Positions 19,601 to 22,600 of a stretch of DNA of 64,000 nucleotides are shown one piece after another (position 1 is the first letter of the stretch; each line of letters starts with the position of its first letter). The notes below the pieces were generated by a model. That model did not search any database and had not been told where the DNA came from. It saw only the letters and a program-made list of their open reading frames with translations. Position numbers and translations under genes: made by a program. The stretch lies in assembly GCA_963842525.1 (NCBI GenBank), contig CAWJGT010000034.1, positions 256,001-320,000 on the forward strand, given 5' to 3'. This DNA is from an uncultured Holophagales bacterium (GTDB taxonomy: Bacteria; Acidobacteriota; Thermoanaerobaculia; Multivoradales; UBA5704).

Positions 19601-22600
19601 CGGCCGGTGCCGGCGGGGGTGCCCGGCGAGATCTTCCTGGGCGGCGTCAACCTGGCGAGGGGCTACCTGCGACGACCGGACCTGACGGCGGAGCGCTTCG
19701 TGCCCGAACCGACCGGCGAGCCCGGCGAGCGGCTCTACCGCACCGGCGACCTGGGGCGCTACCGGCCCGACGGGGCCATCGAGTTCCTCGTACGGCTCGA
19801 CCACCAAGTCAAGATCCGCGGCTTCCGCGTCGAGCTGGGTGAGATCGAAGCGGTCCTGGCGTTCCATCCGGCGGTGCGCGAGGCCGTGGTGCTGGCACGC
19901 GAGGATAGGGAGGACCGCTCGGTCCGCGACCTGCGCCTCGCCGCCTACGTCGTGGCGCGGGAGGGACAGGTGCCGACCCTGGAGGAGCTGCGCGGCGCGC
20001 TGGCCGTCAGCCTGCCCGATTACATGCTCCCCACAGCGCTGGTGGTGCTCGACGCCATGCCGCTCAACCCCAGCGGCAAGGTGGATCGCGCGGCTCTCGC
20101 ACGGATCGAGCCGGAGCCCGGAGAGCCGCCGCAGGCTGCGGAGCGCCGCGACGCGCCTCGCACGCCGGTGGAGCGCTTCCTGGATGGCCTGTTCCGTGAG
20201 GCCCTGCGGCTGCCGGCCGAGCGCGGGATCGGCATCCACGACAGCTTCTTCACCCTCGGCGGCAACTCCATCGACGCCGCGGTCCTGGTCAACCGCCTGC
20301 AGGAGGACCTGGAGGAGATCGTCCACGTGGTCGTCCTCTTCGAGGCGCCCTCGATCGCCCTGCTCGCTTCCTACCTCGTGCGGGAGCACCCCGAGGCGGT
20401 GTCGCGGCTCTGGCGTGCGCCGTCCGCGGCCACGGCACCGGCCGCAGCAGGCCGCCGCATCGAGGCCGCGGCCGTGGAGGAGTTGCGCGCGCTCATCCCG
20501 GCGCCCTCCCCGTTGCCGCGGCTCGCGGCCCGCAACCGATCGGCAGTGTTCGTCCTGTCGCCGCCGCGTTCCGGCTCGACGCTGCTGCGCGTCCTGCTCG
20601 GCGGCCACCCGCGCCTGTTCGCGCCGCCTGAGTTGGAGCTGCTGCCGTACGGCACCCTGGCGGAGCGGCGCGCGGCCTTCCCAGGCCCCGACGCCTTCCG
20701 TCTCGAGGGATTGCCGCGGGCGCTGATGGAGCTGCGCGGCTGCGGCCCCGAGAAGGCCCAGGCCGCGCTGGCGGACATGGAGGCGCGGGGGACGACCACG
20801 GCAGAGCTCTACCGCCTCCTGCAGAACGAGCTCGGCAGCCGCATTCTGGTGGACAAGACCCCCTCGTATACCTTCCACGCCGACATCCTGCGGCGGGCGG
20901 AGCGGATGTTCGACGGAGCGCGGTACATCCACCTGATCCGGCATCCGCACGGGATGATCAACTCCTTCGAGGAGGCCAGGCTCGACCAGATCTTCCTGCG
21001 CGGAATCCACTCCTTCAGCCGGCGCGAGCTCGCGGAGCTGCTCTGGGTGATCGGCCACCAGAACATCATGGATCTCCTGCGCGAGGTGCCGGCCGAGCGG
21101 CAACTCTGGATCCGCTTCGAGGACCTGGTCCGCGAGCCGGAGCGCGCTCTGCGTGAGATCTCCACCTTCCTGGGGATCGAGTACCACCCCGAGATGGCGC
21201 AGCCCTACAAGGACCGCGCTTCACGCATGACGGACGGCCTGCATGCCGAATCGCGCATGCAGGGCGATGTCAAGTTCCACCGTCACGCTGGCATTGATCC
21301 CGGCGTGGCCGACCGCTGGCGCGAAAAGATCACCGAGGACTTCCTGGGCGAGGTCACCCGGGAGACGGCTGTGGCCCTCGGCTATCCCCTCATACCGCTG
21401 CGCCCACACCGTCCGGCCGGCGAGCCCGAAGGCTGGGAACGGATCCCGCGCCTCCACCGCGAGCCGAGCACTCCGCTGCCCCTGTCTTTCTCGCAGGAGC
21501 GCCTCTGGTTCCTCGACCGGCTCGACCCGGGCACGGCCGCCTACAACGTCCCTGCCGCCCTCCGCCTCACCGGTGCCCTCGATGTGCCGGCGCTGGCGGG
21601 GAGCCTGCGCGAGATTGCGCGGCGGCACGAGGCGTTGCGTACCCGCTTCGCCCTGGTGGACGGCCGCCCGGCCCAGATCGTCGAGCCCGAGCCGCGGGTG
21701 GAGCTCCCCGTCGCCGACCTCTCCGCCCTGCCGGAAGCCGCGCGCGAGGCCGAGGCCCTGCGCTTGGCCGCCGCGGAATCGGCCATGCCATTCGACCTTG
21801 AGCGCGGGCCGCTGCTGCGCGCCGCCCTGCTGCGGCTCGGCACGCACGAGCACGCCGCGCTCCTGACCATGCACCACATCGTGGCCGACGGCTGGTCCAT
21901 GGGCATCCTGATCCGCGAGGTGGGAGCGCTCTACCCCGCTCTCGTCCGGGGGGAGGCCTCGCCGCTGCCCGAGCCGGACATTCAGTACGCTGACTTCGCG
22001 GCGTGGCAGCGCCGCTGGCTCTCGGGCGAGCGGCTGGCCGGGCTGATCGCGGGCTGGAAGGAGCGCCTCGCCGACGCGCCCGCGACGCTGGAGCTGCCCA
22101 CCGACCGGCCGCGGCCCGCGGCGCAGACCTTCCGCGGCGGCAAGGTCTCCTTCCACCTCGGCGAGGAGGCCGCGGCGGCCGTTCGCGAGCCGGCGCGGGG
22201 CGAGGGGCTCACATCTTTCATGGTCCTCCTGGCCGCCTTCCAGGCCCTTCTCTTCCGGCACAGCGGCCAGGAGGACCTGGTGGTAGGCACGCCGACGGCG
22301 GGGCGGAACCGGCGTGAGGCGGAGGGACTCATCGGCGTTTTCATCAACAGCCTGCCGCTGCGCGCCGATCTCTCCGGCGACCCCACCTGGAGCGATCTGC
22401 TACGACGCACCCGCGAGCGCACCCTGGAGGCTTACGCCCGCCAGGACCTCCCCTTCGAGAAGCTGGTCGAGGAGCTGCAGCCGCCCCGCGATCTCGCCCG
22501 ACCGCCCGTCTTCCAGGTCATGCTGGCGCAGCAGAACATGCGCTCCGAGGGCGTCGAGCTACCCGGCCTGCGCATCGCGCCGCTGGGCGCGACCGTCATC

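Follow-up and report, generated by a model that had tools for sequence, protein, structure and literature searches.

Sulfotransferase (ST) domains working in cis have already been described in two settings, namely polyketide synthase (PKS) chain release, as in CurM of the curacin A pathway and the olefin synthase (OLS) of Synechococcus PCC 7002, and the sulfated glycerate starters of the nonribosomal peptide synthetase (NRPS) proteins OciA and DysB. According to the available part of the source, the in-cis ST of OciA (cyanopeptolin/oscillapeptin) leaves its sulfate on glyceric acid (PMC2533009), and the accessible portion of a second study gives the same outcome, sulfate retained on glyceric acid, for the in-cis ST of DysB (dysinosin) (PMC6520454). 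In sulfazecin biosynthesis, the available part of a third source presents the sulfotransferase as a separate protein, SulN, and not as a domain of SulM (PMC11298585), which corrects an earlier, sequence-only reading of the DNA studied here that had listed SulM among the integrated STs. This DNA is a stretch of 64,000 nucleotides from an uncultured Holophagales bacterium (assembly GCA_963842525.1, contig CAWJGT010000034.1, positions 256,001 to 320,000), referred to as a whole as the window. It contains a hybrid NRPS/PKS gene in which a predicted CurM/OLS-type ST lies inside an elongation module, in the order adenylation-thiolation-ST-condensation (A-T-ST-C). What is new, as far as sequences can tell, is that STs of this type form a standard insert of Ser-, Thr- and Tyr-type NRPS elongation modules, with hundreds of cases in uncultured soil Acidobacteriota.

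The identification of the domain as an ST comes from profile, sequence and fold comparisons. Pfam, scanned on window:19997-21796 and on both halves of the gene, places Sulfotransfer_3 (PF13469) over residues 184-397 (window 20546-21187) with an E of 7.1e-31 and a score of 108.6 bits, where 27 is the cut-off, so the domain passes the profile check that had been proposed for it; Sulfotransfer_1 (PF00685) passes too (E 1.8e-06, 28 bits against a cut-off of 22). In a sequence search of the PDB, the ST matched those of OLS (4gox; E 9e-66, query 50-330 versus chain 26-300) and CurM (4gbm; E 2.1e-63, query 43-332 versus chain 27-310), a sequence similarity far above chance. An AlphaFold2 model built from a 40-sequence alignment (A2; mean predicted local distance difference test score 84.1, predicted template modelling score 0.82) found the same two structures as its best Foldseek matches, 4gbm with TMt 0.92 and a root-mean-square deviation (rmsd) of 2.2 A, and 4gox with TMt 0.93 and rmsd 2.9 A. 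The next-best solved relatives are the tyrosylprotein sulfotransferases TPST1 and TPST2 (sequence E ~4e-07; fold E ~1e-08 to 1e-09), and retinol dehydratase and LGS1 appear among the remote fold matches of the model.

All the motifs quoted in the sequence-only reading, which had described an intact ST of the type that uses 3'-phosphoadenosine-5'-phosphosulfate (PAPS) in an A(Ser)-T-ST-C arrangement, were found in place, and its range 20160-21470 corresponds to the T domain plus the ST. The 5'-phosphosulfate loop PRSGST (within SPPRSGSTLL, 20558-20587) and the 3'-phosphate motif RHP...S (IRHPHGMINS, 20936-20965), as we take these PAPS-binding motifs to be named, align with the same motifs of 4gbm, 4gox and TPST2. 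The Glu of PPE (codon 20630-20632) is presumably the catalytic base, judging by the residue roles that we assume for CurM, and the Lys of VDKTPSY lies within 20849-20869. A further Glu (codon 20636-20638, in PPELE) stands where CurM and OLS carry His (PPELH), and a low-confidence flap loop of the model surrounds the Glu encoded at 21248-21250. Among 139 NRPS-embedded STs, the window's included, PRSG[ST]T, the PPE Glu, the DKT Lys and R...S are each kept in 138 or 139, the sole exception being one Ala in the PRSG Ser column, and PPELE is present in 139/139, while a stand-alone ST of the same genome (L002) keeps the His. The family shows 51-61% identity across metagenome-assembled genomes (MAGs), with 29 invariant columns.

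As regards the sulfate donor, no PAPS-forming genes were found in the flanks of the cluster that were scanned, where cysC/cysDN had been suggested as neighbours worth looking for. The only clear adenosine 5'-phosphosulfate (APS) kinase and ATP sulfurylase of the genome are joined in one fused frame of 656 aa on contig C24. The presence of this PAPS synthase-like fusion was counted toward ST activity, and the window ST is likely to be an active PAPS-dependent enzyme of CurM/OLS type.

The module around the ST is otherwise that of an amino acid elongation step. Its A domain reads DVWHISLVDK at the specificity positions, which were placed by eye on what we take to be the GrsA numbering and then taken from alignments. 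The corresponding columns of E. coli EntF, whose reference gene entF is annotated as serine activating enzyme, give DVWHFSLVDK; because 9/10 positions match, the domain is taken as Ser-type, as had been proposed. Both neighbouring A domains read DILQLGLIWK, presumably a Gly code, which agrees with the Gly modules expected on either side, and the A domain of the module with a heterocyclisation (Cy) domain reads DLWNLSLIW, which we take to be Cys-like. The T domain had been called atypical, and this view was strengthened by comparison. Its core is GGNSIDAA (motif FFTLGGNSIDAA at 20246-20281), with Asn in place of the usual His and the phosphopantetheine Ser encoded at 20267-20269; across the family, the residue after GG in carriers preceding an ST is Asn, Ser, Thr or Asp in 93/93 cases (mostly GG[NST]SI[ST]GA) and His in 0/93, whereas His occupies this position in 73/83 other carriers. 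By these sequence features, the carrier before the ST is a distinct subtype of T domain. The segment that links it to the ST is kept in alignments A1 and A2.

The C domain that follows carries an HHxxxDG motif (MHHIVADGWS, 21869-21898) and finds its best PDB matches in Txo1 and Txo2 (E ~1e-110), then in TycC; it is, judged on motif and matches, an ordinary elongation domain, as the description of a normal C domain had anticipated. The idea of a special C-domain type after STs was rejected, as the branching of a tree built from 73 C domains that follow an ST and 66 that do not (139 in all) goes with the acceptor A domain, and the largest clade with >=90% 'after ST' members takes in 36/73. No ST-specific signature column or clade was found among these 139 domains; the best discriminating column, with 0.26 bits of mutual information, is the Glu of RHE, which is replaced by Ala, Ser or Asp in 39/73 and kept in the window's domain.

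The best explanation of this arrangement would be that a CurM/OLS-type ST was recruited, with its own carrier subtype, into an NRPS elongation module. The A domain would load L-Ser onto the T domain, the T domain would present the thioester-bound Ser to the ST, and the ST would move sulfate from PAPS to the side-chain beta-hydroxyl, which holds the same position relative to the thioester as the beta-hydroxyl of the CurM substrate. We put the probability that Ser is sulfonated on this hydroxyl while it sits on the carrier at about 0.8. The ordinary downstream C domain would then join the sulfated residue to Gly and, were the sulfate ester to survive, which we consider a little likelier than its loss, the chain would read Gly-Ser(OSO3-)-Gly, followed by a Cys-derived thiazole. 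Acceptor, timing and retention are all points that we infer, and the whole reading with the sulfate retained on Ser stands at slightly less than even odds. The sequence-only reading had offered two fates, a retained Ser-O-sulfate or a sulfate used as leaving group, and both are compatible with the evidence.

The link between the ST and the residue of its own module was manifested in the family at large. The best 80 of at least 581 related stretches yielded 71 loci, the source of the locus-based counts, and these loci together with seven frames of the window's own genome provided 95 ST domains, of which 78 lead on to a C domain and 1 to a thioesterase (TE), with 4 ends of frame and 12 unclear. 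An upstream A domain is present for 79/95, and 78 of these are direct A-T-ST units with Ser-like (39), Thr-like (25), Tyr-like (11), DIWEITADD (2) and DLKNFGTDV (1) codes, where all assignments other than Ser, including that of DA[SA]TVAA.C to Tyr, are those we presume. Among the A domains of these sequences with no ST behind them, 9/66 have Ser-, Thr- or Tyr-like codes and Gly-like is the commonest type. No Phe-type code before an ST was met among the A codes read in the loci and in the listed proteins described below. In trees computed with FastTree on MAFFT alignments of motif-anchored segments, the STs track the upstream A code: a Tyr-type clade holds 11 Tyr-type STs and 3 without readable A (support 0.91), and Ser-type STs group mostly apart from Thr-type ones, with a few groups containing both. 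The flap position (window 21248-21250) follows the same division, with Glu in 39/39 Ser-type and 21/26 Thr-type STs and Trp in 11/11 Tyr-type STs. Since related sequences carry common labels, the counts by A code and ST clade overstate independence, even if their direction is uniform. As far as predicted specificities go, there is a family-wide link of the ST to residues with a hydroxylated side chain, and the agreement of A codes, ST clades and flap residue argues that the ST acts on the side chain of its own module.

A second architecture was found in a search of longer proteins, in which 981 of 7999 scored candidates matched at E <= 1e-20 and the 120 matches listed all belong to uncultured bacteria. 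For the 117 ST motifs in these 120 proteins, a C domain comes next in 49 and a TE in 44, the rest being 16 frames too short and 8 unclear cases. The A codes before the 44 ST-TE pairs are Thr-like (18), DG[LF]FHGE-like (8), Ser-like (2), others (4) or not readable (12). C-A-T-ST-TE termination modules of this sort, mostly after Thr-type A domains, are seen for instance in L057:887-2917, P0064 and P0038. The best PDB match of the TE after the ST of L057 is the NRPS TE 4zxh (E 1.4e-41); CurM TE is outside its 39 PDB matches, so that in this single case the TE is not of CurM type.

Given sulfonation, the fate of the sulfate is what divides the two leading readings. Retention is favoured because STs also occur in Tyr-type modules, where the sulfate would be that of a phenol and so unable to eliminate, because the downstream C domains and the TE of L057 are ordinary, and because OciA and DysB, in the parts of the sources available, keep the sulfate on carrier-loaded glyceric acid. 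Several points weigh against it. A beta-sulfate beside a thioester is chemically poised to eliminate, and an ST placed in cis on a carrier is easiest to understand where the thioester is required for the chemistry. The assignment of the Tyr-type code, moreover, is one we presume, and such modules could take beta-hydroxylated residues; the association of A codes with ST clades is inflated by label sharing among related sequences; and two of the C domains that come later in the window are each spread over more than one frame, through assembly indels or because the line may be broken. To our knowledge, no NRPS product containing O-sulfoserine has been reported, and a literature search naming O-sulfoserine and sulfated serine gave no match.

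The alternative that survives best is that the ST sulfonates and the sulfate is then eliminated, Ser losing it upon alpha-deprotonation of the thioester to give dehydroalanine, with dehydrobutyrine as the outcome in Thr-type modules; the step could occur in the ST active site, in the C domain or spontaneously. Such a course would parallel, within an NRPS, the activation by CurM and the phosphorylation or glutamylation used by lanthipeptide dehydratases. On the whole this outcome is possible and somewhat unlikely. It draws on the fact that in 64/78 direct A-T-ST units the A domain has a code for Ser or Thr, both of them beta-hydroxy residues, and that the ST always acts before the next condensation, when the residue is still a thioester. 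The Glu that replaces the CurM/OLS His in 139/139 and the flap Glu of Ser- and Thr-type STs may each provide an extra base, and the remote fold matches retinol dehydratase and LGS1 are, by their entry titles, enzymes that sulfonate and then eliminate or cyclise. In the accessible part of PMC11730487, the STs of CurM and OLS, the nearest characterised and closest solved relatives, add sulfate only as a leaving group. The 11 Tyr-type modules with STs, the retained sulfates of OciA and DysB, as far as the available parts of those reports go, and the lack of a specialised downstream domain, with ordinary C domains and, in one case, a TE (L057) that is not CurM-like, tell against elimination, as does the sulfated acyl-carrier intermediate of CurM, which was reportedly stable enough to be observed.

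Displacement of the sulfate by a neighbouring nucleophile, where amide O would give an oxazoline, amide N or an amine an aziridine or a beta-lactam, and a thiol could also attack, is improbable. It shares with elimination the activating ancestry of the CurM/OLS STs, it has in LGS1 (by its entry title) a sulfotransferase-fold precedent for sulfation-assisted ring closure, and it could account for the codes that are not of beta-hydroxy type before an ST, DIWEITADD (2) and DLKNFGTDV (1) among the 78 direct units, which we take to resemble codes for 4-carbon residues with a gamma substituent. No cyclase-like partner domain was seen, however, the heterocycle of the window's line is already made by the Cy domain, the sequence points to no particular nucleophile, and Tyr-type modules do not fit. 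Slightly less probable still is that the ST sulfonates a different hydroxyl of the chain, for example one left by the upstream PKS module or introduced by a hydroxylase in trans. An open reading frame (ORF) for a PhyH-family dioxygenase lies immediately upstream of the cluster, and a few STs come after A domains whose residue has no evident side-chain hydroxyl, such as DG[LF]FHGE.. in 8/44 listed ST-TE units; but the residue of the own module is hydroxylated in 75/78 direct units versus 9/66 without ST, ST clades and flap residue track the upstream A code, and the PKS module upstream of the ST has no ketoreductase (KR) domain detected by Pfam in gene 7577..28756. Finally, decay of the ST or of the whole line, or a cluster broken by frameshifts, as the two split C domains and the overlapping ORFs further downstream might suggest, is very improbable, since the ST-bearing gene stays open throughout, every cofactor and catalytic motif is kept, the family is conserved across MAGs, and the frame breaks are possibly assembly indels.

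Various observations bear on the spread of ST-bearing modules. PF13469 matches 16 places in the window's genome (9.95 Mb, 34 contigs), 7 of them in open frames of 1887-8098 aa. All 7 embedded STs show the order T-ST-C; 6 have an A domain directly before them, with Ser-like (2), Thr-like (3) and DIWEITADD (1) codes, and 1 belongs to an A-less C-T-ST module. The other embedded STs share 52-61% identity with the window ST, and two pairs of them lie close together, with spacings of 7 kb (C9) and 14 kb (C19). In the A-less module (L009, C19, ~502 kb; frame residues ~2290-3120), a full C domain (core HHIVSDAWS) leads straight to T-ST and the nearest A domain upstream is Thr-like; another A domain must charge its carrier, unless the module functions in some other way. 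The possibility that every Ser or Thr module is sulfated was rejected, because only 6/41 Ser- or Thr-like A domains of this genome have an ST after them. Two stand-alone Sulfotransfer_3 proteins (L001, G000:C23:92854-95331; L003, G000:C3:1478445-1480499) carry a C-terminal SCP2 sterol-carrier domain, and their N-terminal parts of 290-430 aa have no Pfam match at E <= 1e-5.

Beyond this genome, in a collection with one genome per prokaryote species, at least 581 stretches encode a relative, out of at least 616 pattern matches. Integrated STs had been called rare, a view that does not hold for metagenomes in the light of these stretches, of the 981 proteins mentioned above and of the 7 cases in this genome. 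Of the 71 loci, 70 are titled Acidobacteriota (Thermoanaerobaculia and relatives, Holophagales, Pyrinomonadaceae or plain Acidobacteriota) and 1 Herpetosiphonaceae. When 401 genomes were sampled evenly across the phylum, with four candidates scored per genome, 5 matched at E <= 1e-60, including 3/3 of the window's own family; the cassette thus seems to be concentrated in a few lineages rich in biosynthetic gene clusters (BGCs). A full-text literature search, most subscription journals lying outside its coverage, returned no publication that deals with T-ST-C following Ser, Thr or Tyr, and the available part of a paper on a BGC-rich genus of Acidobacteria has 0 occurrences of 'sulfotransferase' (PMC9723581).

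The window (G+C 69-75%) is filled with plus-strand NRPS/PKS reading frames. By Pfam, motif maps and codes, the domain order of the ST-bearing gene is C-A-T-KS-AT-T-C-A(Gly-type)-T-C-A(Ser)-T-ST-C-A(Gly-type)-T-Cy-A(Cys-type, with an embedded nitroreductase-like Ox domain)-T, where KS is ketosynthase and AT acyltransferase; the one Cy domain, which has the DxxxxD motif, belongs to the next-but-one module after that of the ST. The first module (window 7577-10900) has the A code DPRHFVYRAK and is followed by T-KS-AT-T, and a paralogous line on C19 starts likewise, with DPRHLVLRAK as its first A code. The cluster spans ~C34:237341 to ~359420, well past the edges of the window. Near 46.3 kb and again near 57.3 kb, a condensation domain is divided between frames, and overlapping ORFs are also present further downstream in the cluster; the breaks in the window could stem from indels of the assembly or be genuine interruptions of the NRPS line. 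Coordinates of these features and of the STs found elsewhere in the genome are collected in the table.

At the upstream end, an ORF of 694 aa directly before the first NRPS gene (L083:1085-3166; G000:C34:235085-237169) carries a dioxygenase domain of the PhyH family (residues 434-654) behind an N-terminal part of 432 residues without a Pfam match at E <= 0.1, and could be a hydroxylase for the pathway. The last NRPS frame (L086:966-5417; G000:C34:354966-359420) encodes C-A-T and then, in the same frame, an MFS_1 transporter domain (E 4e-26), and is followed by a DUF3326 gene; no TE domain was seen in the flanking ORFs scanned around the cluster. TIR-domain proteins occur on both sides (L082:1123-3396 and L086:8548-10191), one with TIR and PASTA, the other with TIR and DUF7779. 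A six-frame scan of the whole genome gave 239 A3 motifs with readable code in 154 open frames, an NRPS load that is unusually large for a genome of 9.95 Mb.

Table. Position of the ST-bearing gene and its domains, of the split condensation domains in the window, and of the other embedded STs of the genome (window numbering unless a contig is given)
Feature	Position	Strand	Remarks
Hybrid NRPS/PKS gene	7577..28756	+	single uninterrupted ORF, 7059 aa (ORF list, translation)
Adenylation domain, Ser-type	18540..20100	+	start approximate; A3 19061-19105; A10 Lys 20072-20089 (motif positions)
Thiolation (carrier) domain	20183-20377	+	Pfam PP-binding residues 63-127, E 7.5e-12 (window:19997-21796)
T-ST linker	20378..20542	+	one confident helix, model residues 24-33, window ~20465-20494 (AlphaFold2)
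Predicted CurM/OLS-type ST	20543..21385	+	Pfam, PDB sequence search, fold match
Condensation domain of next (Gly-type) module	21476..22795	+	Pfam Condensation from residue 494 of window:19997-21796
Split C domain 1	ORF 45065..47131		Pfam model 4-345; gene goes on in frame of 46383..56555
Split C domain 2	region ~56558-58100		ORF 56558..57271 = model 3-168; 57503.. resumes at 289
ST elsewhere in genome (L004-L009)	C3:1429175-1429825	-	followed by C
ST elsewhere in genome (L004-L009)	C9:1380261-1380899		followed by C
ST elsewhere in genome (L004-L009)	C9:1387600-1388241		followed by C
ST elsewhere in genome (L004-L009)	C19:255460-256110		followed by C
ST elsewhere in genome (L004-L009)	C19:269168-269818		followed by C
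ST elsewhere in genome (L004-L009)	C19:502255-502896		followed by C

Whichever fate the sulfate meets, O-sulfated Ser, Thr and Tyr peptides or dehydroamino acids, structure prediction is currently wrong at every T-ST module, and synthesis of the products predicted from such clusters would miss the modification. The T-ST cassette might instead serve NRPSs as a device for making dehydroamino acids or beta-substitution products by sulfonation and subsequent elimination on the carrier, a role we regard as rather unlikely. If it does, dehydro residues would have a third, cofactor-driven origin in addition to dehydrating C domains and lanthipeptide enzymes, one in wide use in a BGC-rich lineage of uncultured Acidobacteriota. 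Since the T-ST didomain is small and lends itself readily to assay, the question of the fate of the sulfate is directly testable. If portable, the cassette could also serve as an engineering part.

Compared with known systems, the locus stands at different distances from each of them. Lanthipeptide dehydratases employ phosphorylation or glutamylation routes on ribosomal peptide substrates; together with retinol dehydratase and LGS1 they are mechanistic analogues only, in which a hydroxyl is activated (as phosphate, glutamate or sulfate) before elimination or cyclisation. TPST1 and TPST2 share with the window ST the 5'-phosphosulfate-binding Arg and a Glu aligned with that of PPE; they are distant (~20% identity, TM ~0.5), however, and are free-standing Golgi enzymes acting on proteins. 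SulN resembles the present case in that sulfonation is tied to an NRPS pathway, and differs in being a separate protein, whereas the ST of the window is an embedded domain. SulN is said to act on a carrier-bound intermediate, at the nitrogen of diaminopropionate, after which a TE closes the beta-lactam.

The STs of OciA and DysB, which were set beside that of the window by description only, are similar to it in lying inside an NRPS protein, as the available parts of their sources state, and presumably in acting on a carrier-bound unit before condensation. They belong to starter modules in which glyceric acid enters through a GA/FkbH-type domain, whereas the window ST is found mid-line after an amino-acid A domain, and no match to an FkbH-type domain was obtained in the Pfam scans of gene 7577..28756. 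The STs of CurM (4gbm) and OLS (4gox) belong to the same family as that of the window in sequence and in fold, with the same PAPS motifs and the same position directly after a carrier with a beta-hydroxyl thioester. Three differences set the window ST apart from them. Their Glu-x-His (PPELH) reads PPELE in the window, with Glu kept and His changed to Glu; the carrier of the window is a T domain of NRPS type that receives its residue from a Ser-type A domain; and, while their ST is followed by a decarboxylating TE in the order acyl carrier protein (ACP)-ST-TE, the T-ST pair of the window leads to an ordinary C domain.

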